The notes: generated from the sequence alone by a model not told the origin. A DNA stretch of 64,000 nucleotides from Oscillospiraceae bacterium (GCA_017468365.1 JAFUIS010000019.1:11009-75008), one strand, 5' to 3'; shown: positions 1,064-26,272, counted from the first letter of the stretch. A program made the numbers and translations.

Positions 1064-3487
1064 ATGCCTGAAAAAAGAGAACTTGAAATTATCACAATGC
1101 CCATGATAGCCATGAGGGGAATCGTTCTTTTCCCGAACATGATACTGCATTTCGATGTGGGCAGAAAAAAATCCATTGCCGCCCTTGAAGAAGCTATGAA
1201 AGGCAACAGAACGATTTTTCTTGTTGCCCAGAAGAACATAGAAGAGGACGAAATAAAAACGGATAATATCAATAAGGTCGGCGTTGTTGCCGAAGTGCGC
1301 CAGGTGCTCAAAAACAACGGCGGAACAACCAGAATTCTTGTTGAAGGCAAATACCGCGCAAAACTTGTTGACATTCTTGAAGAAGAACCTTTCCTCGTTG
1401 CGAACGTTCAGGAGTTCCCTCTTAAAGAACTCAGACCCAAACGCTCTATCCTTTGCGATGCGCTTATCAGAACGGTAAAGGATCTTTTCAACGAATATTC
1501 TTTCCTCGTTCCCAAAATGCCGAAGGAGCTTATGGTAAAGGCCTTCGGAATCGATGATCCTGCTCAGCTCGGCGAATTTATTGCCGGCAACCTCAATATC
1601 GACATTGAGGACAAGCAGGCTATCCTTGAGGAATCCAACTACGTAAAACGCCTTGAAATGCTTGCTGGTGTTCTTGAAAACGAGAACAATATCCTCGGCG
1701 TTGAAAAGGATATATACGAAAAAGTAAAGGAACAGATCGACCAGAACCAGCGTGAATATTACCTTCGCGAACAGCTCAAAGCCATTACCGAAGAGCTTGG
1801 TGAAAACGAGAACGTTCAGGATGAGGCAGATGCTTACAAGAAAAAAATCGAGGCTGCAGGAGTTACCGGTGAGGTAAAGGAAAAACTTCTTGAAGAGGTT
1901 GCAAGGCTTTATAAAATGCCTTTTAACAGCCAGGAAGCAAGCGTTATCCGCGGATATCTCGATACCTGTATTGCGCTTCCTTGGAACATAAAGACCGAAG
2001 AGAAGATTGACCTTGCAAAAGCTAAAAAGCAGCTTGACAAGAACCACTACGGTCTTGAAAAAGTAAAAGAGCGTATTCTTGAACTTCTTGCGGTAAGAAA
2101 ACTTCAGCCGGATATCAAAGGCCAGATAATCTGTCTTGTGGGTCCTCCCGGTGTCGGCAAAACTTCCATTGCTAAAGATATTGCGGCAGCCATGGGCAGA
2201 AAATATACCCGTATTTCTCTCGGCGGAATGAAGGACGAATCCGATATCCGAGGCCACAGAAAAACTTATATCGGCGCAATGCCCGGACGCATTATGAATG
2301 CGGTAAAACTTGCCGGAAGCAAAAACGCCCTTATCCTTCTCGATGAGATAGATAAAATGGGCAACGACTTCCGCGGCGACCCCGCTTCCGCAATGCTCGA
2401 AGTTCTTGACCCGGAACAGAATAATGCTTTCCGCGACCACTATATCGAAGTTCCTTTCGACCTTTCCGATATTCTTTTCATTACCACCGCAAACGACGCC
2501 AGCACCATTCCCGGTCCGCTTTATGACCGAATGGAAGTTATCGAGCTTGCTTCCTATACCAGGGAAGAGAAATTCCAGATAGGCAAAAAACATCTTCTCA
2601 AAAAAGAGATGAAACGCCACGGACTCGATTCCAAAATGCTCCGCATAACCGATGACGCCATTTATTCCATCATCGATTTTTATTCCAGGGAAGCCGGAGT
2701 AAGAAACCTTGAAAGAATAATCGGAAGTCTTTGCAGAAAAGCCGCAAAGAAAATTGTTGGCGGAGAAGCGGAAAAAGTTGTTATCAACGAAAACAACATC
2801 ACCGATTTTCTCGGAGTCAAAAAGTTCCGTCCCGAAACCATTGAGCAGAATGACAGCGTCGGTCTTGTAAACGGACTTGCATGGACTTCCGTTGGCGGAG
2901 ATATGCTTCAGGTGGAAGTTGCAGTTCTTGACGGCAACGGAAAAATCGAACTCACCGGTAACCTCGGCGACGTTATGAAAGAATCCGCAAAAGCTGCTAT
3001 AAGCTTTGTGCGCTCCTGCACCGAAAAATACGGAATAGAGCACGATTTTTATAAGACAAAGGATATACATATCCACGTACCCGAAGGTGCCGTTCCTAAG
3101 GACGGACCTTCTGCGGGCGTAACTCTTACCACCGCTATCGTTTCCGCACTTTCCGGAATTCCGGTTCGCAGAGACGTTGCCATGACCGGCGAGATAACTC
3201 TTCGCGGAAGAGTGCTCGCTATCGGAGGTCTTCGTGAAAAAACCATGGCGGCTTACAGAGCGGGCGTAAAGACCGTGCTCATTCCGGAAGAAAACCTTCC
3301 GGACCTCGAAGAGGTCGATCCGGTAGTCAAAAAAGCTATCACCTTTGTTCCGGCAAAAGAGGTCGAAACCGTGCTTGAAACTGCACTTATCAGACCTGCA
3401 AAAGCGGCAAAACACGAAAACCCGTTCATCGAGGAAATTTCCATGCTCGGAATCGAGCACGAAAAAAATCCGGTGAGCGTTCAGTAA
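1064..3487 (+). CDS. lon: ATP-dependent Lon protease
   Basis: 807 aa; Lon N-domain, AAA+ Walker [11 protein letters not shown]-terminal protease motif PKDGPSAG; GGAGG RBS upstream. Confidence 0.95.
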
Positions 3488-3499
3488 GCGAGGAAAAAT

Positions 3500-4123
3500 A
3501 TGAACTATAATCATGCGATTTTTGAAGCGGCATACGGCACTTCAAAACAGCTTCCGAAAGCGGATCATGTTGAATTTGCCTTTGCGGGACATTCCAACGT
3601 GGGTAAATCTTCGCTTATGAATGCGATTTTTGGAAGAAAGGCCCTTGCAAGGGTTTCAAGCCAGCCGGGAAAGACCGTTACCGTAAACTTTTATGATGTT
3701 GACGGTGTAAAGTTTGTTGACTTGCCAGGCTACGGATATGCAAAAGTTTCTCAAAGCGATAAAAAACGTTGGGCAGACCTTGTTGAGGGATACCTTATGA
3801 GCGACCGCGATATCCGCCTTATCGTTCAGCTTGTTGACAGCCGTCACGCACCCACTAAGGACGACGTTCAGATGATAGACTTTATGATCGACAACGAAGT
3901 TCCGTTCATCATTGCGCTTACCAAATGCGATAAACTCAACAAAACCGAGCGCAAAAAAAGGGAAGAGGCTTTCCTTACCGAAATTCCTTGCTTTGACCAG
4001 ATAACTTCCGTCTGGACGAGCACCACCACTTTTGAAGGAATTTCCGACCTTAAAGAAATTTTTGAGGAACTCAGTTCCGAAGATTATGAATTTGAGGATG
4101 AAGAGGAATCCGAAGAAGAATAA
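3500..4123 (+). CDS. engB: ribosome biogenesis GTP-binding protein EngB/YsxC
   Basis: G1 GHSNVGKSS, G3 DLPGYG, G4 TKCD; acidic C-terminal tail; position after lon. Confidence 0.9.
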   Translation: MNYNHAIFEAAYGTSKQLPKADHVEFAFAGHSNVGKSSLMNAIFGRKALARVSSQPGKTVTVNFYDVDGVKFVDLPGYGYAKVSQSDKKRWADLVEGYLMSDRDIRLIVQLVDSRHAPTKDDVQMIDFMIDNEVPFIIALTKCDKLNKTERKKREEAFLTEIPCFDQITSVWTSTTTFEGISDLKEIFEELSSEDYEFEDEEESEEE

Positions 4124-4132
4124 AATTAAAAA

Positions 4133-4160
4133 GGCACTTCTTGTTTGAAGTGCCTTTTTT
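4133..4160 (+). terminator. Rho-independent terminator after engB
   Basis: GGCACTTC-ttgttt-GAAGTGCC followed by TTTTTT. Confidence 0.8.
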
Positions 4161-4181
4161 GACCGCAAAGGGAGGGAAAAC

Positions 4182-4658
4182 ATGGACATTTCTTTCGGAA
4201 TCGAAAATCAGAAATTCAATTACCGCGTCTGCGCAATTATAATTGAAAACGGCAGGATTCTTGCCATGAAAGACGAAGGTTCGCCTTATTATTATCTTCC
4301 GGGCGGAAGAGTAAAAATCGGCGAAACCGCAGAAGAAGCTCTTTTGCGCGAATGCGAGGAAGAACTTTTGATAAAGCCGGAAATTATCCGTCCGCTTTGG
4401 CTTAACCAGGCGTTTTTTACCGAAGACGTCAGCAAAATGAGATTCCACGAACTTTGCGTTTATTTTCTTGTTGATGTTTCTAAAACGGATATCTTTTCGA
4501 GAGGGGATAAATTCGTTTTAACCGAAAACGGACAGAAACATCGGTTTGAATGGCTTTCTTTTGAAAAACTTAAAGACGAGTATTTCTATCCGGAATTTCT
4601 TAAAAAAGATATTTTTAATTTGCCGGAAAACTTTGAAATAAGAACGGAAATTGAATAA
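4182..4658 (+). CDS. NUDIX family hydrolase
   Basis: Nudix box GGRVKIGETAEEALLRECEEEL. Confidence 0.85.
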   Translation: MDISFGIENQKFNYRVCAIIIENGRILAMKDEGSPYYYLPGGRVKIGETAEEALLRECEEELLIKPEIIRPLWLNQAFFTEDVSKMRFHELCVYFLVDVSKTDIFSRGDKFVLTENGQKHRFEWLSFEKLKDEYFYPEFLKKDIFNLPENFEIRTEIE

Positions 4659-4765
4659 GAAATCATTGATGAAGTTAAAGATTGGATTTGTTCTGTCTAA
4701 TAAAAAAGGCCGCCCGAGAGTGCGGTCCAATAAAGCAGTATAATCAGGAACGAAGTGGTGCAAAA

Positions 4766-4798
4766 CAGCCCGGACATTCAGGTGTCCGGGCTGTTTCT
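4766..4798 (+). terminator. stem-loop with T-tract, probable terminator downstream of the NUDIX gene
   Basis: CAGCCCGGACA-ttcagg-TGTCCGGGCTG then TTTCT. Confidence 0.6.
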
Positions 4799-4901
4799 CG
4801 CAAGGCGCACAATACAGGCCAGCAGACACATGTATAGAAGTGCGCCCTTAGTAAACTAAGAAATGTATGAAAGGTTGGTCTATCTGTTGTCCATATGGTA
4901 C

Positions 4902-4929
4902 TTGATTTTCTCAGAAAAACATATATAAT
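4902..4929 (+). promoter_or_regulatory. candidate sigma-A promoter for the HNH islet (about 280-nt leader)
   Basis: TTGATT (4902-4907), 16-nt spacer, TATAAT (4924-4929). Confidence 0.45.
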
Positions 4930-5216
4930 TATGAACGTAGATTATGTTAAAATTGAGTAAAATTGTTTGACGGAACGACGAGAAATCCGAAGACAACAAC
5001 GGTACCAATTTTCCTACACTCAAAAATTTGTAATTCTAAGATACTCTCAACGCCGATTAAAATTCTCGTTACGTCGTTGAGAACCCACAAGATTGGTTCC
5101 GGGAGATTCTCCTCTCCTTGTTGCTATGCGTGTAAAGTGTCAATTCGGATCATTGAAGTCTGTACACGCAATAGTGTATGGGCTTTTTATTTTTGGTTCG
5201 AGTTGGAGGTGATACA

Positions 5217-5558
5217 ATGAAAATTTGCAAAGCACATGCACTTCGTTTGTGGGAGGAATGCTTCGGCAACGCTCAGTTTGCCGAGGACTTTCATGGCAAT
5301 CTTATGTGTCGTGATGGATATGGTAACTATAATTTCTGCGTTAATAGGTGGGGAACACTTATTTATTGCGGTTGGAACATCCATCACATCCTTCCGCTTT
5401 CCTGCGGTGGGACAAATGAAAAACACAATTTGATTTGTACGAACATTTACACAAACGATCAGGCGGAAGATAAGATTACTTATTGGATTGATGACTGCCT
5501 ATACCAAGTGCAAAAGGTTTATGGCACAAGAGAACATCAAATCGTAAGACTGAATTAG
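5217..5558 (+). CDS. small HNH (beta-beta-alpha-Me) nuclease, 113 aa
   Basis: GGAGG RBS 7 nt before the ATG at 5217, so the track start at 5178 is unlikely; motif GWNIHHILPLSCGGTNEKHNLICTNIYTNDQAEDK fits His-Me finger (HH...N...N). Confidence 0.75.
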   Translation: MKICKAHALRLWEECFGNAQFAEDFHGNLMCRDGYGNYNFCVNRWGTLIYCGWNIHHILPLSCGGTNEKHNLICTNIYTNDQAEDKITYWIDDCLYQVQKVYGTREHQIVRLN

Positions 5559-5569
5559 TGGGTAAAACG

Positions 5570-5749
5570 ATGAGTAAACATTTCTTTGATTATGAAGATG
5601 GAGATTTTTTCCACAGCATATCTGATAATATGGCGATTGATTCCGATGGAAATATGATGATGCGGATTTCAGATCATTTGGCCATAGATATGGATTCAGG
5701 AGATCTTCATTATACTTCTTCATGGGATAACAATGAAGATAATGACTAA
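5570..5749 (+). CDS. small highly acidic protein with tandem ISDxxAIDxDxG repeats (function unknown; candidate partner or inhibitor of the HNH protein)
   Basis: 59 aa from ATG 5570; an alternative GTG at 5558 overlaps the HNH stop as TAGTG. Repeats are SISDNMAIDSDGN and RISDHLAIDMDSGD; strong terminator follows. Confidence 0.55.
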   Translation: MSKHFFDYEDGDFFHSISDNMAIDSDGNMMMRISDHLAIDMDSGDLHYTSSWDNNEDND

Positions 5750-5763
5750 ATTAATCTAAAAAG

Positions 5764-5803
5764 CACTACCGAGAAGCGGTTAACTTCTCGGTAGTGTTCT
5801 TCT
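5764..5803 (+). terminator. Rho-independent terminator of the HNH/acidic protein pair
   Basis: CACTACCGAGAAG-cggttaa-CTTCTCGGTAGTG then TTCTTCT. Confidence 0.8.
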
Positions 5804-5920
5804 ATTCTCGCTTTCTGAGCAGAGGGAATTCCTATTTGAACATAGCCAGAACTTAATTAAACTTTAGCATTTGCATACTGTCCTATTGGAAATCACCCGA
5901 AAGGCGGTCTTTTTTATTTA

Positions 5921-6601
5921 TCAGTTATCTCTTGTTTCGATGACTTCGCCGTTGTGCAAACGAATTATTCTGTCAGCCATACCGGCGATTTCCATATCAT
6001 GGGTAACAAGAAGTATGGTCTGATGAAAACGCGCCGCAAGGGCTTTAAGGTGGCGCAAAACCTGGTCGCCGGTCTTGGGGTCAAGGTTACCGGTGGGTTC
6101 ATCAGCAAGGATTATGGCGGGTTTTGAAACCAGCGCACGGGCAATGGCAACTCGCTGCTGCTCACCGCCGGAAAGCTGGTCCGGATAGCGGTCGAGTTTA
6201 TCCGAAATTTCCAAAGCCTCAACAAGTTCCTTTACGAATTCAGGGTCGGCGTCGCGTCCGTCAAGATGAAGAGGCATAAGAATGTTTTCTTTAACGGTAT
6301 GTTCTTCAAGAAGATTGTAAGCCTGGAAAACAAAACCGATTCGCTGCCTGCGAAGGCGGCAAAGTTCGTTGTTGCCAAGGTCGAAAATGCTTTTATCTTC
6401 GATAAAAAGTTTTCCGCCGGTGGGACGGTCAAGTCCGCCCAAAATCTGAAGAAGGGTGGATTTTCCCGAGCCGCTTCGTCCGATTATGGCATAGAAAACG
6501 CCTTCCTCAATTGAAATATCAAGAGGCTTTAAAGCGTGAACTTCGTTTTCGCTGCCTTCGTTATATGTTTTATAAAGACCTTCGGTTCTTAAAATATCCA
6601 T
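5921..6601 (-). CDS. ABC transporter ATP-binding protein (MacB/LolD-FtsE type)
   Basis: Walker [10 protein letters not shown], signature LSGGEQQR, Walker [12 protein letters not shown]. Confidence 0.9.
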
Positions 6602-6610
6602 TCAAAAGCC

Positions 6611-9600
6611 TCACTTTCTGGTTTTGATGTTTTCAATGGGAAGATAACGGCGAAGATTATGCATAGGCATAATGTAAAGAAGAGTTATAATCGCCGCAAG
6701 CACTACGCAAAGAAGGGTGTGGAGAAGCCACGGATATCCCCAAAGAAGGTTTCCGAGCACGGCTTCGGTAAAAGCGGAATATATCGCAATCCCGCCCCAG
6801 AGCGCCGTATTGGCAATAAGAAGCGCACATCCGGAAGAAATGAGTCCGATATAAAGCTGACGCTTTATGAACTGGCGGTTGCTTACTCCGAGGGACTGAA
6901 GGATTCCTATGCGGTTGCGTTCCTGCTCAATATCGGAAATTACGGTGTTAGCAAAAATCATCAGCGCAAGCAGTACAGCGGTAAGACCGAGAAGGCAAAC
7001 CAGGAGGATGTTGTTTATTCCGTCCTGCAAAAGTTTGCTGTTGCTTTCGTGATAGAATTCGATATCCATATATTCATTTCTTGCATAGATAAGAAGCTTG
7101 GTGTCAACGTCATATTTGGAAAGTCCTTCCTTGGCGTTGATATAAAAATCGGTGTTTCCGTATCCGCTGGAAACGTACATTATCTTGAAGGAGCGTATCT
7201 CGTTGGAAGAACGGGTGCGTATAGAGTTGGGAAGAATATATCCCGCAAGTTTGGAGGAACAGACAATTTGATAACCTTCGTCGCTTCCGCTGATGGGCCA
7301 GATTCCTTCATCAGGGAAATAATAGATTATTGCTCCGACTTTTACGGTTTCGGTGATGATTTTATAATCATATTTGATTCCGCCGACGTATCTTGTCTGG
7401 GCACCGACGGTTATTCTGTCGCCGACGGAAAGTCCGCCGTCCTTTTTATAGATGTGTTTATATTCTTCATAGAAGGTGGTATCGATTCCGGAGGAAGAAA
7501 CGCGTTCCCAGCCGCTTCCTTCTGCGGTTTCGGCGCCTTTTCCGTTGTCTTTATAAAGAGGAATGAGAACGATTACCTCGTCGCCGGCATCAAAAGCTTC
7601 TTTGTTAACGTTGCCGACGGTGGCCGCGGAACTGAATTGTTCAAAAAGCTTGCTGTCGGAAGAGACCGCATAAAGGTCTATAGGGTAACCGACAAAATCT
7701 TCTGCGCCGAAGCTGTCGGTGATAACTTTAAGGTCATCGCCGTAGGCTCTTTCAAGAAGAACGCTTTCGACGGAATCCCTGCTGAGCACCGCATCAGAAG
7801 CGGTACGCTGGACCTCGATGCTTTCGCATACGCCCAAAGCTTCAAGCTCGGCTATATATTCCGGAAGCTGTCTGTCCGAAGCGGAAAAGGGAAGCTGAAG
7901 AAAATAGTCGGGACGGTTGTCGCGCTGCACTGTTTCGCGGTAAGGGGTCATAAAACGGAAGCCGATAAAAACGCAAAGAGTCGTTATGAACATCATAAAG
8001 ACGCAAAGTGCAAAGTTTCCGAGGGTGCGGCTTTTGTTTGCCATAAGTCCGCGAATGGTGACGTTGAGAAAATCCTGACGGGTCTCTTTTTTAGGCGGAG
8101 CAAGAGGCTTTTTGCGAGCGGTTCTTCCGGTGAGAGGAACGCCTATGGCCATGATGCTCGGTACCATCATTCCGATGAAAAGAGCAAAAGTTCCCGCAAG
8201 AAGCGCAAGGATAAGAATGAGCGGGTCGATAGTATAAAGGATATCTCTGTTCTGTGCCTTTTCAAGGAAGAAAGTGGTTATATATGCGCCGAAAAGTCCG
8301 AGCACAGTTCCGAAAGGAAGAGTGGTTATCCAAAAATAGATGAATTCCCAAAGGAGCATCTGACCTATCTGGCGGCTTTCGGCGCCGATGGATTTCATAA
8401 GAATGATGCGGCGCAGACGCTTGCGCATCTGGGTAAAGAAAATCTGGAAAACAGCGCAGACGGTGGTTACAAAAAGGATTATCGTTACAAGAGTAAGAGT
8501 CTGTTCGCTGCCTTCGGAAGAGGAAGGATAGGCAAAACGGTTGAGCCTTAAAACGGAAAGATCGTGAGGAGATTCAACAGAATCTTCGGCAATAAGGCTG
8601 CTTTCATTTTTTATTGCACTGTTGACGATAACGCGGCATTCTTCCCAAAGTTCACGGGGAGAAAGCTTTTCGGAAGAAAGGAAAACGACGTTTTCATAAG
8701 GTTTGAAACTGAAATAAGTATATTTATCAACGACTTTTTTCTGGGCATTGATAAAGGTGTTATAGTTTTCTTCGGTTACAAAACCGCTGGGAAGTGCGAG
8801 CATTCCGGTATCCCATCTGTCGGAAAAAGTTTCGACAACGCCGCAGACGGTATAAGTATAGGGAATGTTGATTATTATATCCCTTTTATTGACGGTGACG
8901 CGGATGTTGAGGTTTTCATAACCGATAAGGTCGGCGGTGGGACCGAAATAAAAAGCTTTTTCTTCATCAGTCATATGTTTGACCATATGTTTGGTAATGT
9001 TTGTTCCGGAATCGGAAAAAGCGTTTACAAAGAAAGAATATACCTTGATAAACTGTTCTTCGGTCATTTCGTCAAAAGGAATTATTTGTCCTTCGGGGTG
9101 TTTATCATCTGCAAGGACTTTTGCCACAAGGCTTCCTTCGCTCTGGGAAGGATAAAAAGTGAAGAATTCTTCATAAACTTCCTTGTTGAAGTTGAGAATG
9201 GAAGGGTTATAGTCTTTCCAGGATTTAAGGCGATAGATATCCTTTCCTTCGTTTATGATATCCTCTTTTGAAAGTTCGATTATTTCGTCAAGCCTTGCAA
9301 GATAATCGTCGTTTGCATCAATACGGATCTGAGAAATGACGGTGAAACTGTCGCCGAGTTTGAGGTTGAGCGAAGAAAGACGGGCATATTCAAGAGCAAT
9401 CTCGTTCTTTTCTTTCGGCCAGCTGCCTTCTTTAAGAGTGAGGTTTCCGGCTTTTACAAAATCTTCGGAAAAATGTGTGAGATAATATTCGTTGTCTCCG
9501 GAAAAATAATCGACTCCGAAAACCGAAACCATCGGAAGAACGGTGGTTTTGTCGGATTTTTCCGAAAGATCCGAAATAACTTCTTCTGTAAGAATTACGG

Positions 9601-10007: not shown

Positions 10008-11186
10008 ATGGAAAAGAAGAATATTTTCAACTCAAAGATTTTTAAAATCATCGCAAAAATCGTTCTTACTCTGTTTGCACTGGTTTTTACATATTTCTTC
10101 TTGGTTTTTGTTCTTGTTTTTTCTGCAATAGCAGAATTTGATATTGCGTTCATATATATCGCAACGCTTCTTGTTCCGGCGCTTTTGATCCCGCTTATCT
10201 GGGCAAAAAAGAGAAAAAGGGTTCTTATTGTCTGGTCCGTTCTTTTTGCGGCTTTTATCATAGCTTTGTGCGTAGATGTCGGAATAAAACGGTATAACAA
10301 AAGTATAACGATAAACACTACGCCGAATATAAATGTTCACGAATATCTTCCATTTAAAGAAGATTCCAAAATTGCCGTTCTTGAAAAGGAGGCAAGCCTT
10401 AAACTTTCAGAAAATCTTCCGATAGTTGACGGAGCAGCGGCTGTTTTTCCGGTTTATTCCGCTTTTGTAAACGCGGTATATCCCGAAAGCACAGAACTTT
10501 GGGACGGGGTTTTTGAATATAACAATACCGTCGGCGGATATAAACTTTTGGGAGAAAAAGAAACCGACATATTCTTTGGGGCATATCCTTCGGAAGAACA
10601 GATTTTTGCGGCAGAAGAAAAAGGAACGAAATTCGTTTATACTCCTATAGGATACGATGCTTTTGTTTTCTTCGTTCATAAAGATAATCCCATTGATAAT
10701 CTTACAACCGAGCAGGTTCAGGCAATTTATTCGGGCGAAATAACGAATTGGAACGAAGTGGGCGGAAACAACGAAAAAATTGCGGCTTTTCAGCGCAATG
10801 AAGGAAGCGGAAGCCAGAGCATGCTTATCCGTTTTATGGACGGAAAAGAGATAATGGATGCTCCGAGTGAAATGGTGAACGACCTTATGTCCGGAATAGT
10901 TGAAAAGGTTTCGGATTATAAAAGCAAATCAAATTCCATCGGTTTTTCTTTCAGATATTACCTTGAAGGAATAATTCAAAATCCGGACATTAAGATCCTC
11001 AGCATTGACGGAGTTGCGCCGACTCCGGAAAACATCAAAAACGGAACCTATCCCATAACCGGGCCGCTTTATGCAGTAACTTTTGAAGGAAACGACAACG
11101 AAAACGTTGAAAAACTTCTTGAATGGATACTTTCCGACGAGGGACAGTATATTATTGAAAAGACCGGATATGTAGGTATAAAATAA
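10008..11186 (+). CDS. membrane-anchored PstS-like (type 2 periplasmic binding fold) substrate-binding protein
   Basis: ATG 10008 after AAGGAGG; N-terminal ~90 aa hydrophobic; PstS-like core (PIGYDAFVFFVHKDNPIDNLTTEQVQAIYSGEITNWNEVGG, QRNEGSGSQ). Confidence 0.7.
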   Translation: MEKKNIFNSKIFKIIAKIVLTLFALVFTYFFLVFVLVFSAIAEFDIAFIYIATLLVPALLIPLIWAKKRKRVLIVWSVLFAAFIIALCVDVGIKRYNKSITINTTPNINVHEYLPFKEDSKIAVLEKEASLKLSENLPIVDGAAAVFPVYSAFVNAVYPESTELWDGVFEYNNTVGGYKLLGEKETDIFFGAYPSEEQIFAAEEKGTKFVYTPIGYDAFVFFVHKDNPIDNLTTEQVQAIYSGEITNWNEVGGNNEKIAAFQRNEGSGSQSMLIRFMDGKEIMDAPSEMVNDLMSGIVEKVSDYKSKSNSIGFSFRYYLEGIIQNPDIKILSIDGVAPTPENIKNGTYPITGPLYAVTFEGNDNENVEKLLEWILSDEGQYIIEKTGYVGIK

Positions 11187-17432: not shown

Positions 17433-17500
17433 TTGCAAGCATTGAAATTATGTGCTATACTAACCATGTTGAAATGTATTATTTTCAGGAGGATAACATA

Positions 17501-17659
17501 ATGGAACACATTAAAACTGTTAACAACGCAAACCTTAAAGAATCTTGCGCAAAAGGCGGCTGCGGCGAATGCCAGGCTTCCTGCCAGTCTGCATGCAAAA
17601 CTTCCTGCACTGTTGCAAACCAGGAATGCGAAAACGAATCCCGCAAAGGCAACAAATAA
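17501..17659 (+). CDS. scfA: SCIFF (six-cysteines-in-forty-five) ribosomal peptide precursor
   Basis: ATG 17501 after AGGAGG; MEHIKTVNNANLKESCAKGGCGECQASCQSACKTSCTVANQEC; directly upstream of a radical SAM/SPASM gene. Confidence 0.85.
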   Translation: MEHIKTVNNANLKESCAKGGCGECQASCQSACKTSCTVANQECENESRKGNK

Positions 17660-17728
17660 TTATTATTGATTATTAAATTGCAGGTGTGCCAAACACGGCG
17701 CACCTGCCGTTTTTTTGGAGTAATTTAA

Positions 17729-19105
17729 ATGGTACATACTTTTTATCAAAACGGTTATTATATTGCTCTTGATGTAAACTCCGGCGCGGTACATGTTCTT
17801 GACAAGCTTGCTTTCGATCTTCTCAATAAGTTTGAGGACAAGCTTCCCGAAGAATGTCCCGCGGAGTTTGTAAAAGAGCTTTCCGGTGAATATCCCGAAC
17901 AGGATATTCTTGAAGTTTATTCTGAACTTCTCGGCCTTCAGAAAGCGGGCCAGCTTTTCAGCGAAGACGATTATGAGCGTTTTACCGATATGATGAAGGG
18001 CGCACCCATCAAATCCATGTGCCTTCACATTTCTCACGACTGCAACCTTCGCTGCAAATATTGCTTTGCTTCCACCGGCGACTTCGGCAAAGGCAGAAAA
18101 CTCATGCCCGTTGAAACCGGTAAAAAAGCGATCGATTTTCTTCTTACCCATTCCGGAAACCGCCACAACCTTGAACTTGACTTCTTCGGCGGCGAGCCTC
18201 TTATGAACTGGGACGCAGTAAAAGAGATCGTTGACTATGCAAGAAGCAAAGAAGAAGAATATAACAAGAAATTCCGCTTCACCGTTACCACCAACGGCGT
18301 TCTTCTTAATGATGACAGCATCGACTACATCAATAAAGAGATGAAAAACGTTGTTCTTTCTCTTGACGGAAGAAAGTGCGTAAACGACGCTATGCGCCTT
18401 ACCGTAAACGGAAAAGGAAGCTATGATATCTTTGTTCCCAAGTTCCAGAAGCTCGTTGAAAAACGTCTTCAGGGCGAAAACAAGGAATATTATGCACGCG
18501 GAACCTTTACCAAGAACAACCTTGACTTTGCAAAAGACGTTTATCATATTGCCGACGATCTCGGCTTTGATCAGCTGAGTGTTGAGCCTGTTATCGCAGA
18601 TCCCAGCGAGCCTTATGCTATCACCGAGGAAGATCTTCCAACCATTTTTGCCGAGTATGAAAAACTCGCGGTTGAAATGGTAAGAAGAAAGAAAGAAGAG
18701 GGCGGATGCTTTAACTTCTTCCACTTCATGATCGACCTTGACCAGGGTCCTTGTGCTATAAAGCGCCTTCGCGGATGCGGATGCGGCAACGAATACGTTT
18801 CCGTAACCCCCGATGGCGATATCTATCCCTGCCACCAGTTCGTAGGCAACGACGAATGGAAAATGGGCAATCTCGACGACGAAACCCTTGATATCGAGAT
18901 GAAAGATAAATTTGCGTGCTCGAATATCTATACCAAAGAAGGCTGCCGCGATTGCTGGGCAAGATTCTATTGCTCCGGCGGATGCAACGCAAACAACTAC
19001 AGTTTCAATAAGGATATCAACAAACCCGTTAAGATCTCCTGCGAACTTGAAAGAAAACGCGTTGAATGTGCTATCATGATAAAAGTTGCAATGGCAGACA
19101 AATAA
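17729..19105 (+). CDS. scfB: SCIFF radical SAM/SPASM maturase (thioether-forming)
   Basis: CNLRCKYC radical SAM cluster motif; Cys-rich SPASM C-terminus (CGCGNEY...CHQF, CRDCWARFYCSGGC). Confidence 0.9.
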   Translation: MVHTFYQNGYYIALDVNSGAVHVLDKLAFDLLNKFEDKLPEECPAEFVKELSGEYPEQDILEVYSELLGLQKAGQLFSEDDYERFTDMMKGAPIKSMCLHISHDCNLRCKYCFASTGDFGKGRKLMPVETGKKAIDFLLTHSGNRHNLELDFFGGEPLMNWDAVKEIVDYARSKEEEYNKKFRFTVTTNGVLLNDDSIDYINKEMKNVVLSLDGRKCVNDAMRLTVNGKGSYDIFVPKFQKLVEKRLQGENKEYYARGTFTKNNLDFAKDVYHIADDLGFDQLSVEPVIADPSEPYAITEEDLPTIFAEYEKLAVEMVRRKKEEGGCFNFFHFMIDLDQGPCAIKRLRGCGCGNEYVSVTPDGDIYPCHQFVGNDEWKMGNLDDETLDIEMKDKFACSNIYTKEGCRDCWARFYCSGGCNANNYSFNKDINKPVKISCELERKRVECAIMIKVAMADK

Positions 19106-20763: not shown

Positions 20764-20789
20764 AAAAATCCTCCTTTTCTTCTCCCCTT

Positions 20790-20819
20790 AACTTCGCTAA
20801 ATTTCTATTTAGCGAAATT
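20790..20819 (+). repeat. attL: dif-like recombination site
   Basis: AACTTCGCTAAA-TTTCTA-TTTAGCGAAATT; arms are inverted repeats with one mismatch; shares a 15-nt identical block with attR. Confidence 0.8.
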
Positions 20820-20849
20820 GACACTTACGTTTTAAGGGGGTACACTCGT

Positions 20850-22148
20850 ATGAAAAAATTTGTTGCTTTGGCTTTGTCTTTGGTGCTTGTTTTTTCTATG
20901 GGTGTACCCTCTTTTGGTGCAACATCTGTTTCTATTGATGAATCCGGTGTTTTTGCTCCGGATAAATCTAACACAAATTACTCTACAAATACTGTTTTTA
21001 CGAATTTAAACATTCTTGAAGCGATTCGCGTTCTTGCGGATAGTTCTGCTTATGATATTCATCAGCTTAAAGTTCTTTTTTCTACTGGCTCTTATAAAAC
21101 CGTTGCTGACGCATTAAATCTTTATTTTAGTGGTGCAGTCGCTGATGTTAATTCCTATGGTAACGGTAATCTTGGCGATATGATGAGCACTTTTGCTTAT
21201 TTGGGTAGAGAGATTCAAGGAATGAATTATTTTACTCCCTACTCCGGTGGCGAAGCAACTTCTCTTGATGAAGCATTAAACAAGAATCTTTTATATATTC
21301 AAAATCAGCTTCGAGTTATTTCGGACAGTATGGGTGCAACTTCTGCAAGTTCCGGTTTAATGTCCGGTTGGACTTTGTCCGGTGTTCCCTCTCCAGAGGG
21401 CTACGATTCTTCTTGGTATCGTCGTATTTTGATGAATCTTTATTCTTTCCGTCTTGACTTTGCACGTCTTTACGACGGAACTTGGGCGGATTCTACTAAT
21501 TATGCTGATAGTTTCTTTTATCAAACATATTTACAAAATAAAATTCAATCTGATAATGTAGAAGGCCTTTTAAATGGTTGGTCTGCTACATCTACTGCGT
21601 ATCCGGACGGATATGAAAACTCTTGGTATCGTGCTATTAATCAAAGATTATATGCTTTTCAAAGTTCTTGGGTTAATATAATGAATCAAGTTATGATTCC
21701 ACGTGTAAATTCTATTCAAAGTCATCTCTTTGATATCTTAGATGATACTGATATGTTGCAACAAGTTCTTGCCGATGAAGATGACCTTGCGATGAAAGAT
21801 TCTCTTGCATCTTCAAAAACCGAAGTTGTTGACTTTGTCGGAAATGGTATTACTTCCTCGAATGGTTCTTCCTTTTCGCTTATGTCCGGTATAACTGACG
21901 GAATCGGCTTTGCTACTGATTTCAATGAGTTTTTTTCAATGCCTGATATCGGTTTAGGTGATATATTTAAAGTATTTGATAATACTTCGGAATCCCTTTC
22001 GTGGTTTACGGAAGAAACTGCTTCAAATATAGATACCGTTCCGGCTACATATTCGAGAGAATCGAATCCGCAGACGGAAATTGTCACTTCGTATTATGAG
22101 GATAGAAAATCCGAATTCAACGATATGTGGGGTGATATAGTTGGTTGA
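20850..22148 (+). CDS. secreted phage protein with internal duplicated module (candidate adsorption or host-recognition protein)
   Basis: Signal peptide MKKFVALALSLVLVFSMGVPSFGA; repeated GW..S..P(E/D)GY(D/E)xSWYR..(N/L)..LY.F module. Confidence 0.6.
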   Translation: MKKFVALALSLVLVFSMGVPSFGATSVSIDESGVFAPDKSNTNYSTNTVFTNLNILEAIRVLADSSAYDIHQLKVLFSTGSYKTVADALNLYFSGAVADVNSYGNGNLGDMMSTFAYLGREIQGMNYFTPYSGGEATSLDEALNKNLLYIQNQLRVISDSMGATSASSGLMSGWTLSGVPSPEGYDSSWYRRILMNLYSFRLDFARLYDGTWADSTNYADSFFYQTYLQNKIQSDNVEGLLNGWSATSTAYPDGYENSWYRAINQRLYAFQSSWVNIMNQVMIPRVNSIQSHLFDILDDTDMLQQVLADEDDLAMKDSLASSKTEVVDFVGNGITSSNGSSFSLMSGITDGIGFATDFNEFFSMPDIGLGDIFKVFDNTSESLSWFTEETASNIDTVPATYSRESNPQTEIVTSYYEDRKSEFNDMWGDIVG

Positions 22149-22287
22149 CCCTATAATCAATGCTGTTGAAGTTTTTCTCGTTTTTTATGAGAATCTCCCT
22201 CAACCGATTATTGCTTTGTTTAATCTTGTTTTGTTTCTTATGGTGATTTTCTACATTATAAGAACAGTAGAAAAGGCGGGTTCGTGA
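22141..22287 (+). CDS. small hydrophobic phage protein (48 aa, TTG start; minor coat candidate)
   Basis: Hand-translated; GGGGTG RBS; one TM (IIALFNLVLFLMVIFYII); overlaps neighbours at both ends. Confidence 0.35.
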   Translation: MVDPIINAVEVFLVFYENLPQPIIALFNLVLFLMVIFYIIRTVEKAGS

Positions 22288-22430
22288 TGTTGTTTAATAT
22301 TTTTGATATTCTTTTCGGTCTTTTTCCTGCTTGGTTTGCTACATTTTTGATTATTGCTTTTTTTGTTACGGTTATAGTCTTGCTTATTCGTCTTGTTGTT
22401 TGGATTATTGAAATTATTCCCGGATTCTAA
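22287..22430 (+). CDS. small hydrophobic phage protein (47 aa)
   Basis: ATG overlaps the previous stop (TGATG); MLFNIFDILFGLFPAWFATFLIIAFFVTVIVLLIRLVVWIIEIIPGF. Confidence 0.5.
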   Translation: MLFNIFDILFGLFPAWFATFLIIAFFVTVIVLLIRLVVWIIEIIPGF

Positions 22431-22442
22431 AGGGGTGATTAT

Positions 22443-22634
22443 ATGACCGCTGACGGTCTTTCATTCATACAATGGTTTTTTCCTGCTATGTGGTCTTTTT
22501 TTACAAGTTGGCATATTCCCGGAACTGGTGTCAGCCCTGCCGGGTGGCTCTTGTTCTTGCTTCTTGCAGGAATTGTTTTGAAAATTGTATTTCATATTCT
22601 ACACTCCGGTTGGCTTTCCGGTGGAGGTAATTAA
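22443..22634 (+). CDS. small membrane phage protein (63 aa)
   Basis: Two hydrophobic segments; GGGG RBS; stop abuts the next ATG. Confidence 0.55.
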   Translation: MTADGLSFIQWFFPAMWSFFTSWHIPGTGVSPAGWLLFLLLAGIVLKIVFHILHSGWLSGGGN

Positions 22635-23228
22635 ATGAAGATTATATGTGTTTTGCTTTCAATCGTCTTTCTCTTTTCCTTTTCGGTAACAGCTTTCGCC
22701 GAAGTTGCATTGGACGAACTCGGCGAAGTTGTTCCGGTTGAAGATAGTACCCAGAGCGAAGAATCTGGCGAAGCTACTTCCGGAAATGAGTATCTCGATA
22801 TGGTTTTAAATAATATGCAGAATGATATTGACGATTTACAGTCTGATGTTGAGGTGCTTCAAGATGATGTATCTGCGATTTCTGAATCAGATGTTGTATC
22901 TGATTCGACAGTTGAAAATTCTACTTCCGAAGAACCGGAAGAAATCAACCCGGAATTAGGTATTGATGAAAGTACGCCAACGGCTGTAAATGTTTATGCT
23001 TTAAATCCGATAACTCCGGAAGATACAACGGGTTTGAAGTCCGTTCTTCTTTCTCTTATCGGTGATTATGACGCTATTGTAGTTGAATACGAATACACGG
23101 GTAGTAATAGCTATACAAACTATCTTCGTGAAGTTCAACCGGATTATGTTTGGTTGTGCTCTGCTGCAATATTCCTTGTTATAATCTATTCTGTGTTTAG
23201 GCTTGGGGGTGCTCTGTTCCGTGGATAA
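22635..23228 (+). CDS. acidic secreted phage protein with C-terminal membrane anchor (pIII-like minor coat candidate)
   Basis: Signal peptide MKIICVLLSIVFLFSFSVTAFA, D/E/S-rich middle, C-terminal TM VWLCSAAIFLVIIYSVF plus basic end. Confidence 0.55.
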   Translation: MKIICVLLSIVFLFSFSVTAFAEVALDELGEVVPVEDSTQSEESGEATSGNEYLDMVLNNMQNDIDDLQSDVEVLQDDVSAISESDVVSDSTVENSTSEEPEEINPELGIDESTPTAVNVYALNPITPEDTTGLKSVLLSLIGDYDAIVVEYEYTGSNSYTNYLREVQPDYVWLCSAAIFLVIIYSVFRLGGALFRG

Positions 23229-23229
23229 T

Positions 23230-23364
23230 ATGCAAGCTTTTGCCCTTTGGCTTTTGGAAGAAATTCCGAATTTTCTCTTGTCTGAACCGATATGTTACTT
23301 TGTCGGTATCGCTATTTTGTTCTTGGTAATAAAGCTGTTCGGCTCTATTATAAAAATTCATTAA
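23230..23364 (+). CDS. small hydrophobic phage protein (44 aa)
   Basis: Hand-translated MQAFALWLLEEIPNFLLSEPICYFVGIAILFLVIKLFGSIIKIH; starts 1 nt after the previous stop. Confidence 0.5.
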   Translation: MQAFALWLLEEIPNFLLSEPICYFVGIAILFLVIKLFGSIIKIH

Positions 23365-23379
23365 AAGGAGTTTTAATTT

Positions 23380-23559
23380 ATGGAAGGAAGTGTAACTGTG
23401 GCAACTATTCTCGAATCTGCAGGACTTATCGTCACCGAGGCTCTCTCTTGGCTCACCGAAACCGTTACCACCGTCGTAGGCTCTCCGCTTCTTCTTATGT
23501 TCGTAATCCTCGGACTTGTCGGAACTGGCGTCGGTCTTATGCGTAGAATCATTGGCTGA
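23380..23559 (+). CDS. major coat protein candidate (pVIII-like, 59 aa)
   Basis: AAGGAG RBS; amphipathic acidic N-part, TM PLLLMFVILGLVGTGVGL, basic C-end MRRIIG; strong terminator follows, as after gene VIII in Ff phages. Confidence 0.7.
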   Translation: MEGSVTVATILESAGLIVTEALSWLTETVTTVVGSPLLLMFVILGLVGTGVGLMRRIIG

Positions 23560-23569
23560 TGATTCCGTG

Positions 23570-23607
23570 GGGAGTGCACACGCTTTGCGTGATCGCACTC
23601 CCTTTTT
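23570..23607 (+). terminator. strong terminator after the coat gene
   Basis: GGGAGTGC ... GCACTCCC with nested CACGC/GCGTG pairing, then TTTTT. Confidence 0.8.
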
Positions 23608-23637
23608 CGCTATTTTGTATTTAGGTGGTGCACACTT

Positions 23638-24360
23638 TTGTATATTGTCTTTTTTCTACTTCTGTTTTTTGGCACAATATTTGCCGTTCTTGCTTATCGT
23701 TTCCGTAATCCTTTCAAGCTGTATTATATTTTCGGAAAAAAGGGCTCGGGAAAATCTCTGTTTATGGTTAAGTTTATGTTGAGGTATCTTCGTAAAGGTT
23801 GGACGGTTTACACCGATATTTCCGATGTAAATATTCCCGGTGTTCGTCTTATCAATGCGAAAGACCTCGACACTTTCCGTCCGGAAGAAAATTCCGTTAT
23901 ATTTCTTGATGAAGTCGGAATTACTTTCGATAATCGTAAATTCAAAACATTCACGGACGGTATGCGTGATTATTTCAAGTTTCAGCGTAAATATAAATGC
24001 GTTGTTTATATGAACTCCCAAAGCTTTGATGTTGATAAAAAAATTCGTGACCTTATAGACCGTTTTTACCTCGCAACAAGCCTTGGTAATGTTATTTCAA
24101 TATACCGACCTATAAATCGTAAGGTTGCCCTCGTAGAAGCTTCTGCGCAGGGTGAGAGCCGTGTTGCTGATAACCTTGTATTTGCTCCGATATGGGAATG
24201 GAAATTCATCTTTATGCCGAACTATTTCAAATGGTTCGACAGCTTCGAAGCTCCATACCGTGAACTTATCCCATTCAAAGAAATCCCCGGTAAACTTCCG
24301 AAAGACCCTACACCGAAGCAGGCTCTAAAATTGATTCATAAAGGACTGAAAAAGAAATGA
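23638..24360 (+). CDS. Zot/pI-like P-loop morphogenesis ATPase
   Basis: TTG start after GGTGG; Walker A GKKGSGKS, Walker B VIFLDEVG, then QRKYKCVVYMNSQSFDVDKKIRDLI resembling the Zot-family core. Confidence 0.75.
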   Translation: MYIVFFLLLFFGTIFAVLAYRFRNPFKLYYIFGKKGSGKSLFMVKFMLRYLRKGWTVYTDISDVNIPGVRLINAKDLDTFRPEENSVIFLDEVGITFDNRKFKTFTDGMRDYFKFQRKYKCVVYMNSQSFDVDKKIRDLIDRFYLATSLGNVISIYRPINRKVALVEASAQGESRVADNLVFAPIWEWKFIFMPNYFKWFDSFEAPYRELIPFKEIPGKLPKDPTPKQALKLIHKGLKKK

Positions 24361-24539
24361 TTAAACTATGGCTTGGAAATAAACTCCGCTTTCTCTCGCA
24401 CCTTGGAATGTTCCTCTGTGGCTTGTGCTCGCTCATTGCACCGTGGTATATTGCGCTTGTAATCTTCGTGCTTGCTTTCGTACTCGACTATGTCGCATTT
24501 TCTGCGGTAGCGCAGTATTTTACAACCGATGAGGGGTAA
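24357..24539 (+). CDS. small two-TM phage protein coupled to the ATPase gene
   Basis: ATGA overlap with the Zot-like gene; 60 aa, hydrophobic. Confidence 0.55.
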   Translation: MIKLWLGNKLRFLSHLGMFLCGLCSLIAPWYIALVIFVLAFVLDYVAFSAVAQYFTTDEG

Positions 24540-24564
24540 AGGGGGCTTTGCCCTCTTTATTCGC

Positions 24565-24638
24565 CTTTGAGCGCCGTGCTCAAAGTTCCGTGCTTGTCAT
24601 ATGCTCAACACATATCCCGTGCTCAAGCTGTGCGTGCT
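24565..24638 (+). repeat. hairpin plus iteron-like CCGTGCT repeats in the phage noncoding region
   Basis: CTTTGAGC-gccgt-GCTCAAAG (24565-24585); CCGTGCT at 24574, 24588 and 24617; GCGTGCT at 24632. Confidence 0.6.
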
Positions 24639-24660
24639 GTTACCTTATTCAGCATAAAAA

Positions 24661-24700
24661 GGCAGGATCACCGCCATAAATATGGCGGTGCCTGCCTTTT
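24661..24700. terminator. bidirectional terminator between the phage structural module and the RHH gene
   Basis: GGCAGG-at-CACCGCCATA-aa-TATGGCGGTG-CCTGCC flanked by A5 and T4. Confidence 0.85.
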
Positions 24701-24701
24701 C

Positions 24702-24842
24702 TTATTCTTGTTCCTCAAGATACTTTTTGATAATTTGTGCTATTAAATTAGATACGCTTCTGCCCTCTTTCTGTACCTGCTCTTTTAACTTCTCTGTAAT
24801 TTCGTCATCTAAAAATGTTGATATTCTGTTTTTGTCCGTCAT
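24702..24842 (-). CDS. ribbon-helix-helix (CopG/Arc-like) repressor, 46 aa
   Basis: Start at MTDKNRISTFLDDEITEKLKEQVQKEGRSVSNLIAQIIKKYLEEQE; RHH pattern (beta strand RISTFLD plus two helices); the only minus-strand gene in the element. Confidence 0.7.
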   Translation of the reverse strand: MTDKNRISTFLDDEITEKLKEQVQKEGRSVSNLIAQIIKKYLEEQE

Positions 24843-24879
24843 ATAAATGTTCCTTTCTTGCTGAATTTGCAAATTTCGG

Positions 24880-24908
24880 TTGACTTGGTGGTACAACCGT
24901 AGTACAAT
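24880..24908 (+). promoter_or_regulatory. candidate promoter of the phage replication module
   Basis: TTGACT, 17-nt spacer, TACAAT. Confidence 0.55.
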
Positions 24909-24914
24909 GCAGTT

Positions 24915-24940
24915 GTTCAAAAGTTGTCCTACTTTTGAAC
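24915..24940. promoter_or_regulatory. operator-like perfect inverted repeat in the divergent promoter region
   Basis: GTTCAAAAGT-tgtcct-ACTTTTGAAC, just downstream of the -10 element. Confidence 0.55.
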
Positions 24941-25033
24941 CCTCATATTATAGCCTGGGGAGTTGTGACCGGAGAATCCCTCTCCCCTCGCCACCTTATG
25001 AGGAAATAAAACTTGACGAAATGAGGTAAAATT

Positions 25034-25288
25034 ATGGACAGAAAGATTACTATCGTTGGTATTGAAGAATACGACTTCAAAACTCGTGAGAATGAAACTC
25101 TCGAAATGGCAAACATTCACTATCAGTATCAGAATCAGCGAGTTGAAGGCATAGCCTGCGGTCGTGTGACTGTATCTAAAAAAATGCTTGACCGTTATAA
25201 TATTCAGCTTAATGCAGAATATATCGGAGCGTTTTATCTTGACGCTAATAAACGCGAAAAACTTGCGGCACTTTTCGAGGAGGCTTGA
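25034..25288 (+). CDS. phage protein, 84 aa (position and size compatible with an ssDNA-binding pV-like protein; unproven)
   Basis: GAGG RBS; first gene of the replication module. Confidence 0.4.
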   Translation: MDRKITIVGIEEYDFKTRENETLEMANIHYQYQNQRVEGIACGRVTVSKKMLDRYNIQLNAEYIGAFYLDANKREKLAALFEEA

Positions 25289-25290
25289 AA

Positions 25291-25497
25291 GTGATTACTA
25301 CTTATGATTCCCTTCATACTATGAACGATAATATTTATGATGTTATTTACGATTCTGAACGTAAAGCCTTTGGTGTTATCGTAGCTTGGGACGATTTCAC
25401 CTGTGAACCACAGATTAAATATTGTGATTCTCTCGATAATGCAAAGCGCCTTGCTATTGGCTTTGTAATTGCTGAAAATAATATTTTTAATTTTTAA
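25291..25497 (+). CDS. phage hypothetical protein (~68 aa)
   Basis: GTG 25291 lies 8 nt after GAGGAGG; the track's TTG at 25285 is the alternative start. Confidence 0.45.
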   Translation: MITTYDSLHTMNDNIYDVIYDSERKAFGVIVAWDDFTCEPQIKYCDSLDNAKRLAIGFVIAENNIFNF

Positions 25498-25526
25498 TCC
25501 GCACGGACTACGAGAATGTGCGGATT
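25496..25526 (+). promoter_or_regulatory. candidate rolling-circle double-strand origin hairpin with nick-site-like loop
   Basis: AATCCGCAC-ggACTACGAgaat-GTGCGGATT, 40 nt upstream of rep. Confidence 0.6.
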
Positions 25527-25566
25527 GTAGCATGTAGCAAAATTAAATAAATTGAGGTTTTGATTT

Positions 25567-26151
25567 ATGAGTAGAAATTCAAATTTCAACCCGGAAACAT
25601 CAAAACGTCGTGTCTTTTTTATTGAACTTTATCCCGATTCTTCAACATATAATTGTGATGAACTTTTAGCTGTTGCTCGTTCTTTTCCCGAATATGCTTT
25701 GATTTGTCACGATAAAGATGTTAATTCGGTTACTGGGGAAGTTAAAAAACCGCATTATCATATTGTAGTGCGTGTTAAGCCTTCCCTGCTTTCTACGGTG
25801 GCGAATAAGTTTCCCGGTTTGGAAACTCGCTTTATTGAGGTAACACACGAATTTAGGTGGTGTTTACGCTATCTAATTCACTTGGACGATATAACAAAAT
25901 ATCAATATCCGCACGAAGCTGTTGAAACTAACATTTCGGATATCGAATCCTATTGGCGTATTTCTTCGGAATGGTCGCTTGTTCGTGAAATGATTCAGCT
26001 TCGGTTGACTGGTTCAACATGGTATCAAGTGTTTGACTTTTGCGGAAAAAATCAATGTTATGATGTCTTTCGCCGTAATATAGCGATAATCAAACTCGTT
26101 GCCGGAGAATCCGACTGCACCGATTATGGTGAATGGGATGAAACAATATGA
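25567..26151 (+). CDS. HUH rolling-circle replication initiator, pMV158 RepB (Rep_2)-like
   Basis: ICHDKDV...KKPHYHIVVRV (HUH motif) and CLRYLIHLDDITKYQY (catalytic Tyr motif); 194 aa. Confidence 0.8.
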   Translation: MSRNSNFNPETSKRRVFFIELYPDSSTYNCDELLAVARSFPEYALICHDKDVNSVTGEVKKPHYHIVVRVKPSLLSTVANKFPGLETRFIEVTHEFRWCLRYLIHLDDITKYQYPHEAVETNISDIESYWRISSEWSLVREMIQLRLTGSTWYQVFDFCGKNQCYDVFRRNIAIIKLVAGESDCTDYGEWDETI

Positions 26152-26181
26152 ACTTCGGAAAAGTTTCTATTTAGCGAAGTT
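26151..26181 (+). repeat. attR: dif-like recombination site
   Basis: AACTTCGGAAAAG-TTTCTA-TTTAGCGAAGTT; first base overlaps the rep stop codon. Confidence 0.8.
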
Positions 26182-26272
26182 GGCTCTATGGAAATTATAG
26201 CACAAAAAGCCTCTTCCCGTCAAGTGTTTGCATCAAAAAAAGCCTGATTTTATCAGGCCTTTTTGCTTATTG

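Follow-up and report, generated by a model that had tools for sequence, protein, structure and literature searches.

A 30-bp palindrome that is split by a small prophage in the window (by which we mean the whole 64-kb stretch of Oscillospiraceae DNA that was analysed) is probably the chromosomal dif site of its host, located at the replication terminus with a linked xer gene, and the prophage is probably an IMEX (integrative mobile element exploiting Xer), as judged from the sequence of the window and of related loci. The original prediction for this locus had paired the two att sites and reassembled the palindrome from them; what it did not contain is that the recombinase is a host gene outside the element, the site most likely the terminus dif, and the phage most likely an IMEX. 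The features of the window are collected in Table 1.

TABLE 1 Features of the window, with positions counted from its first nucleotide
Feature	Position	Strand	Remarks
SCIFF peptide gene and radical SAM/SPASM maturase gene, with tgt, yajC, and DUF3792	17450-19105		Left of xer
Tyrosine recombinase (Xer), 336 aa	19753-20763	−	Outside the att interval; start codon 26 bp from attL
attL	20790-20819	+	AACTTCGCTAAATTTCTATTTAGCGAAATT, composed of host left arm AACTTCGCTAAA, TTTCTA, and phage right arm TTTAGCGAAATT
Promoter of the first phage gene, TTGACA-17-TACACT	20818-20846	+	Sigma-70-like, consensus match only; −35 overlaps the outer end of attL
Prophage interval	20820-26150		5.36 kb
Secreted protein, 432 aa, candidate adsorption/minor coat protein	20850-22148	+	Signal peptide; without family match
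Three hydrophobic ORFs (48, 48, and 63 aa), putative membrane/coat proteins	22141-22634	+	Assigned from size and position only
Candidate minor coat protein, 197 aa	22635-23228	+	Signal peptide and C-terminal hydrophobic anchor
Candidate major coat protein, 59 aa	23380-23559	+	Hydrophobic core, basic C terminus LMRRIIG; inferred, without family match
Zot/pI-like morphogenesis ATPase, 240 aa	23638-24360	+	Pfam Zot, 7.1e-6
Non-coding region between structural and replication modules	24540-24700
Ribbon-helix-helix (CopG-like) regulator, 46 aa	24702-24842	−	Sole minus-strand phage gene
Two small ORFs (84 and 70 aa)	25034-25497	+	Upstream of rep; without family match
Rolling-circle initiator Rep_OBD, 194 aa	25567-26151	+	Pfam, 3.2e-16; the stop codon ends on the first base of attR
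attR	26151-26181	+	AACTTCGGAAAAGTTTCTATTTAGCGAAGTT, composed of phage left arm AACTTCGGAAAAG, TTTCTA, and host right arm TTTAGCGAAGTT
Host promoter TTGACG-18-TGcTATAAT	26194-26223	−	11/12 consensus matches, extended −10; just right of attR
radA and DUF6873 genes	26273-28411		Gene order radA, DUF6873, dif, xer

Attachment sites, empty sites, and gene content of the prophage

The sequences and coordinates given for attL and attR in the original prediction were exact on re-reading. With 11 of 12 positions complementary between its arms, attL is presumably still a functional dif adjoining xer; the phage left arm in attR is degenerate and one base longer (13 nt), an extra base that puts binding by Xer in doubt. 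The 15-nt block common to both sites, TTTCTATTTAGCGAA, occurs in two exact copies in the 64-kb window, both on the plus strand and spaced by 5,362 bp. When the window was scanned for the 12-6-12 pattern with at most three mismatches, attL was the sole match, compared to none in 100 shuffles, and no further copy of the site was found in the 64 kb besides the prophage junction. As had been proposed, the arrangement is one of integration and excision, since the repeats are direct and surround a discrete mobile element; an inversion switch is ruled out by the same direct orientation, and the predicted crossover inside the common 15-nt block held up as well. A reading of the site as a LacI-type operator was rejected. 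The reciprocal join, AACTTCGGAAAAG-TTTCTA-TTTAGCGAAATT, is attP-like as had been described: in this reconstructed attP, the spacer is that of dif, 11 of 12 positions of the right arm agree, and the left arm is degenerate.

Contigs encoding exactly the window recombinase were found in seven places (L001 to L007). Two of them (L001 and L003) carry the prophage. On L004, where the recombinase is likewise 100% identical, the right flank is followed by AACTTCGCTAAATAGAAATTTAGCGAAGTT and then by the recombinase leader; this junction is the left part of attL joined to the right part of attR, read on the opposite strand. The L006 contig, again with a 100% identical recombinase, begins with the same empty-type site, and the remaining three contigs (L002, L005, and L007) end inside the site, as is expected when occupied and empty alleles coexist in a sample; such breaks were seen in several samples. 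The L002 contig, like L089, is from sample SAMN15829981, and L004 is from SAMN15829951. Two GTDB species representatives (L008 and L009), with recombinases 94% and 92% identical to that of the window, also show an intact palindrome, flanked by the genes for DUF6873 and the recombinase. The empty-site palindrome reads AACTTCGCTAAA-TAGAAA-TTTAGCGAAGTT and lies between the recombinase gene and right-flank sequence. With the predicted join seen in L004 and the palindrome in L008 and L009, the empty site that had been postulated is directly verified: the reassembled 12-6-12 palindrome is real, being uninterrupted and having both correct flanks in L004, and the palindrome is also found in L006, L008, and L009. 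The search for an uninterrupted 30-bp palindrome elsewhere, which had been suggested as a check, therefore located it both in contigs with an identical recombinase and in two related MAGs. The recombinase gene is retained at the empty sites, and a phage-encoded integrase is ruled out because of this persistence.

All genes of the prophage are encoded on the plus strand except for one small regulator. The small hydrophobic ORFs are typical of inovirus membrane or coat proteins, and the Zot/pI ATPase is an inovirus hallmark gene; the Zot gene of the prophage also matched the PHROG Zot-like family (6.9e-12) and M13 protein I (1.2e-7). No recombinase was detected in the prophage interval among 12 ORFs compared to Pfam and 10 compared to PHROGs, and the three unscanned ORFs (48 to 63 aa) are too short for one. 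The gene content and the lack of a recombinase match together identify the element as an inovirus-like prophage without an integrase. The inovirus traits present are the pI/Zot ATPase, a rolling-circle Rep, small membrane proteins, and a co-oriented genome of ∼5 kb, with coat proteins assigned by size and hydrophobicity; judged by its genes, the element is an Inoviridae-like filamentous phage (Tubulavirales). A filamentous virion with circular single-stranded DNA would be expected, for which the ∼5-kb circular relatives in faecal viromes give indirect support. One of the two small ORFs upstream of rep may, as a guess, encode a single-stranded DNA (ssDNA)-binding protein. In the non-coding region between the structural and replication modules, motifs similar to CGTGCTCAA recur and a hairpin rich in GC (GGCAGGATCACCGCC...GGCGGTGCCTGCC) is present; the region may be the phage origin or packaging region.

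The features of an IMEX that were observed are the absence of a recombinase of its own, flanking dif-like sites in direct orientation, and a dif-like attP. According to the proposed mechanism, the double-stranded replicative form of the phage would carry attP with its canonical arm, TTTCTA, and its degenerate arm, and the host Xer would have joined attP to dif by an exchange in the spacer or at its edge. The dif concerned would be the 30-bp palindrome, a chromosomal site at the replication terminus and within the leader of the host xer gene. Recombination would yield a near-perfect dif (attL) adjoining xer, with the crippled attR at the other end of the element. Binding and cleavage of these sites by Xer, and the order in which the strands would be exchanged, we infer. 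No inverted second site was found in the window, so that integration most likely used the double-stranded replicative form, in the manner of VGJphi and TLCphi. IMG/VR does not contain the exact attP junction of the window phage, the degenerate attP pattern had no match in JGI metagenomes or IMG/VR, and the phage-side arm with its flank had none in JGI metagenomes. For Rep, the search for relatives in IMG/VR gave two pattern matches, neither of them confirmed, and a look-up of the exact window sequence returned no record.

The palindrome, the recombinase, and the replication terminus in Oscillospirales

We retrieved 80 species-level loci, all from Oscillospirales, with up to 21 kb per relative and the 64 kb of the window genome; the taxa sampled include Oscillospiraceae, Ruminococcaceae, Acutalibacteraceae, Faecalibacterium, Gemmiger, Ruminococcus, and Caproiciproducens. 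Of the 80 species, 47 have a perfect 11-6-11 palindrome no more than 2 kb (median, 90 bp) upstream of their xer homologue. One family accounts for about 45 of the 47, with arms that end in AAA and an AT-rich spacer (GC content, 0.13) that has T...A ends in nearly all cases; the site thereby has the layout of dif, i.e., 12-6-12 with an AT-rich centre and perfect arms in ∼45 species. Around 15 arm variants occur, each perfectly mirrored (for example, ATTTCGCTAAA, ATTATACAAAA, ACTCAACAAAA, AGTAAACAAAA, GTTTCACTAAA, and ATTGCGCAAAA). The arm class tracks the nearest neighbour of the Xer protein in 43 of 47 cases (permutation mean, 12.8; maximum, 29), which argues that gene and site diverged together.

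The conserved spacer ends modify one part of the original prediction, which had described an asymmetric 6-bp spacer: the asymmetry stands, but as nearly all relatives have a T and an A at the two spacer ends, each arm effectively gains one position, which turns the dyad into 13-4-13 and confines the asymmetry to the central 4 bp. In a comparison of two groups of species with ATTATACAAAA arms (L024, L042, L043, L062, and L066 versus L026, L044, L052, and L067), whose sites are ∼25 to 160 bp upstream of xer, the spacer is TGAATA in some species and its reverse complement TATTCA in others. Such a flip means that the orientation of dif with respect to xer reverses, which would be tolerable only with equivalent arms.

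The gene order radA, DUF6873, dif, xer is conserved in the window and in related loci. Of the 80 species, 40 have radA and 19 have the DUF6873 gene within 10 kb of xer; the surroundings of the terminus are unusually stable. DUF6873 is a family without known function. The SCIFF (six-cysteines-in-forty-five) locus to the left of xer marks the host as a member of the Clostridia.

The recombinase matched Pfam Phage_integrase (4.9e-39) and contains a SAM-like N domain. The full catalytic set (R, H-x-x-R, H, and Y) is present, with R171, H266, R269, H293, and Y302 invariant in an alignment of 14 homologues, and the top NCBIfam matches were all Xer models; by its sequence, this is a host Xer-type gene. 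The NCBIfam scores (bits obtained/cut-off) were 233/335 for XerC, 216/330 for XerD, 197/220 for XerA, and 149/267 for XerS. All of them are under the cut-off, and the protein is therefore not placed in any named Xer equivalog. The best matches in the PDB were XerA and XerD, with Pyrococcus XerA at the top (1.5e-33), and the XerH structure reached only 5e-15. A separate PDB match to Xer residues 6 to 320 (2.4e-27) was chain 14 of 9i5v, which has 401 residues and is labelled "Ribosome-associated translation inhibitor RaiA"; this label seems inconsistent with the sequence of the chain.

Because both arms are identical, one Xer most likely acts on both of them, and our comparison points to a single-recombinase dif, like those of XerS, XerH, XerA, and XerL, as the most likely arrangement. 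The adjoining gene might instead be one of two Xer paralogues that serve this dif, with an XerC/XerD-like partner encoded elsewhere, and both the higher scores of the protein against the XerC and XerD models and the name XerC that NCBI gives to its homologues would agree with that. We regard this as unlikely, since a heterodimer gives no reason for arms that are identical over 11 to 13 bp in ∼45 species and that change together, and the XerC and XerD scores are ∼100 bits under their equivalog cut-offs.

The dif reading is accompanied by signals of a replication terminus. All 27 species with 9 kb available on each side have a higher GC skew to the left of the site than to its right, in 24 of them the skew changes from positive to negative at the site, and long ORFs converge there. 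An unbiased search for 7-mers in 35 related loci and the window, which made up 8% of the data, found words that point toward the site from both sides, i.e., AGGGAAG (125:10), GGGGAGA (103:10), and GGGGGAG (66:3); their bias of at least 10:1 is far above the ∼2:1 bias of gene orientation, and the analysis marks them as candidate KOPS/SRS-like words for Oscillospirales. CAGGGGA also points strongly toward the site (at least 10:1). Within the window, polar words to the left of the site numbered 23 on the plus versus 3 on the minus strand, and those to the right 4 on the plus versus 15 on the minus strand, and the genes also converge. The window GC skew falls from +0.044 to +0.012 at the site without a change of sign, a signal so weak for this genome that the terminus call here depends on gene convergence and polar words. 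In a complete chromosome (CP181263.1), the site is at 74% of the record with the origin unplaced, so that this record is uninformative on the terminus. The Xer/dif-type core that had been predicted from the window is thus supported by the adjoining Xer-like tyrosine recombinase, by the palindrome that covaries with it across the order, and by the switch in skew and polar words at the site.

The tight linkage of gene and site resembles that of an integrase and its attP, and several different mobile elements use the site, as would be expected if recombinase and palindrome were a dedicated integration module (a resident or domesticated integrase) that is unrelated to dimer resolution and only incidentally at the terminus. 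We consider this very unlikely, given that the pair is vertically conserved across an order with the stable neighbours radA, DUF6873, and the SCIFF maturase, that it sits at the switch in skew and polar words in nearly every species, that the recombinase remains at empty sites, and that XerS and XerH have the same linkage of gene and site.

At the empty sites of L004, L008, and L009, a conserved TGnTATAAT is found ∼12 nt upstream of dif, so that dif is part of the xer leader, and autorepression by Xer through dif is conceivable. The prophage puts 5.36 kb between xer and this apparent native promoter. The separated xer promoter is now directed antisense into the phage rep gene, and no consensus promoter was seen on the minus strand by attL (positions 20764 to 20900). 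Lysogeny may therefore lower the expression of Xer, and for the dif reading the separation is awkward if Xer is needed continuously; it also hints at either a measurable cost of lysogeny or a way in which the prophage is stabilized.

The palindrome might also be a transcription signal, either an operator or a terminator hairpin between convergent or divergent genes, the phage having entered by another route such as Rep and the repeats being a by-product. In favour of this, the site has a strong promoter on one side and the start codon of xer on the other, so that it could double as an operator, and perfect hairpin terminators abound in these loci (47 further perfect palindromes in 1.3 Mb). It is nevertheless extremely improbable, since those other palindromes are of a different, terminator-type class (T runs behind GC-rich stems), an operator role would agree with dif and is hence no alternative to it, and the junctions are reciprocal host/phage hybrids with the exchange in a 6-bp spacer between inverted arms, a signature of tyrosine recombination and not of HUH Rep nicking or transposition. 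Rep-mediated insertion was rejected on account of this signature.

Other elements at the same site and relatives of the phage

In other hosts, inovirus prophages (L093, L096, L098, and L099) lie exactly between xer and DUF6873/radA. The degenerate left arm of the window attR is also present in L099 (CTTCGGAAAAG). The L098 prophage (positions 3245 to 7480 of that locus) keeps a perfect dif as its attL but lacks rep and a recognisable right junction, and has the appearance of a remnant that is decayed and fixed. A different kind of element was found in L031, from a distant species, where a 4.4-kb insert (positions 5060 to 9481) lies between dif-like sites (ATTATACAAAA-TGAATA-...) at the DUF6873/xer position. 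It encodes a Rep_1 rolling-circle initiator, a sigma-70 region-4 helix-turn-helix (HTH) protein, and a truncated tyrosine recombinase fragment and is probably a plasmid-derived IMEX. A half-site scan of all loci for second sites was too noisy, with plausible extra sites only in L031, L033, L072, and L087.

Two of these prophages have different spacers at their two ends, i.e., TTTCTA and TCTCTA in L093 (positions 556 to 583 and 5880 to 5907) and TTTCTA and ATCCTA in L096 (positions 3841 to 3868 and 10227 to 10259), each of which is kept with its own left arm. That the spacer stays with the left arm suggests that the retained crossover is at the right end of the spacer, by the conserved arm. These spacers would fit the exchange of one strand and subsequent replication, a hint from two natural cases.

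L092, a free circular genome of 5,556 bp with a 17-nt terminal overlap, is the one free member of this phage group in which attP was seen directly. Four arm-like segments (two inverted dif-like sites) are present in L092 (positions 5104 to 5181) and in L096 (positions 10188 to 10262). As ssDNA, they fold into two arm duplexes with an asymmetric unpaired centre, i.e., a forked hairpin, with z scores of −6.0 and −5.5, respectively. This fold resembles in its architecture the attP(+) of CTXphi, which is a folded single strand. The window phage differs from CTXphi in having a single site without an inverted partner and does not look CTX-like.

The Zot protein is 50 to 60% identical to those of the circular ∼5-kb "Inovirus sp.", bajarodino, and Dulem virome genomes in GenBank. 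These faecal genomes (porcine in the case of "Inovirus sp.") resemble the window prophage in genome size, circular form, and Zot, but differ from it in that no host or integration site is recorded for them. When five circular genomes (four from GenBank and the Logan contig L095) were searched for the known dif-like arm classes, only one-mismatch matches at chance level were obtained, so that these genomes are uninformative on attP.

Comparison with known Xer systems and implications

The closest parallels among integrating phages are VGJphi and TLCphi of Vibrio cholerae, which are likewise small and integrase-less, encode a rolling-circle Rep and Zot/pI, and integrate at dif via the host Xer; in both cases, attP has one good and one degenerate arm, and a usable dif is regenerated on one side. 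The window phage differs from them in its host, a gut anaerobe of Gram-positive lineage, in its palindromic target, probably served by one recombinase rather than by XerC and XerD, and in an attP spacer that is identical to the dif spacer. Its proteins share no close similarity with those of the Vibrio phages beyond the family level.

As in XerS/difSL of streptococci and lactococci and XerH/difH of Helicobacter and Campylobacter, a single xer gene is linked to the site at the terminus in a vertically inherited module, but the window protein is in neither family, and its perfect arms contrast with the only partly symmetric difSL and difH. In Legionellales, the dif of the single recombinase XerL was found through the att site of the IMEX LME-1 (PMC9765430). 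That system is similar to the present one in that the att site of a mobile element revealed dif and in its uninterrupted inverted arms of 10 to 12 bp, low GC content, and single recombinase; it differs in the distance between xerL and dif (>400 kb in Legionella versus 26 bp here), in the lineage of the recombinase, and in LME-1 not being filamentous (PMC9765430). Archaeal XerA, also a single recombinase, has in Pyrococcus XerA the best structural match to the window protein, but the host here is bacterial, and the score of 197 is below the XerA cut-off of 220.

The reviews and surveys searched name only XerCD, XerS, XerH, XerA, and XerL and describe IMEX in Proteobacteria only. Neither a dif/Xer system of Clostridia or Oscillospirales nor a filamentous IMEX of Gram-positive bacteria was found in the literature searched, an absence there that is not proof. 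Both kinds of system are known as such; the lineage, architecture, and host range appear to be new.

Taken as a whole, we lean somewhat towards the view that Oscillospirales, including Faecalibacterium, Ruminococcus, Gemmiger, and Acutalibacteraceae, rely for the resolution of chromosome dimers on an undescribed single-recombinase module whose perfectly palindromic 13-4-13 dif lies in the xer leader, and that gut inoviruses of Gram-positive hosts exploit this dif through both VGJphi-like (double-stranded) and CTXphi-like (folded single-strand) attPs. If true, this would extend the IMEX lifestyle beyond Proteobacteria and give a host to an orphan clade of ∼5-kb virome inoviruses, so that small faecal inoviruses, so far seen only as virome circles, would be linked to Oscillospiraceae and to a route of integration. 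It also suggests that the hijacking of Xer by a half-crippled dif mimic arose independently in phages of Firmicutes. For the hosts, the locus is likely the dif/Xer system of a large and medically relevant gut order, and the 30-bp palindrome and the 336-aa recombinase form a compact, loxP-like pair that might serve in gut anaerobes that are hard to engineer.
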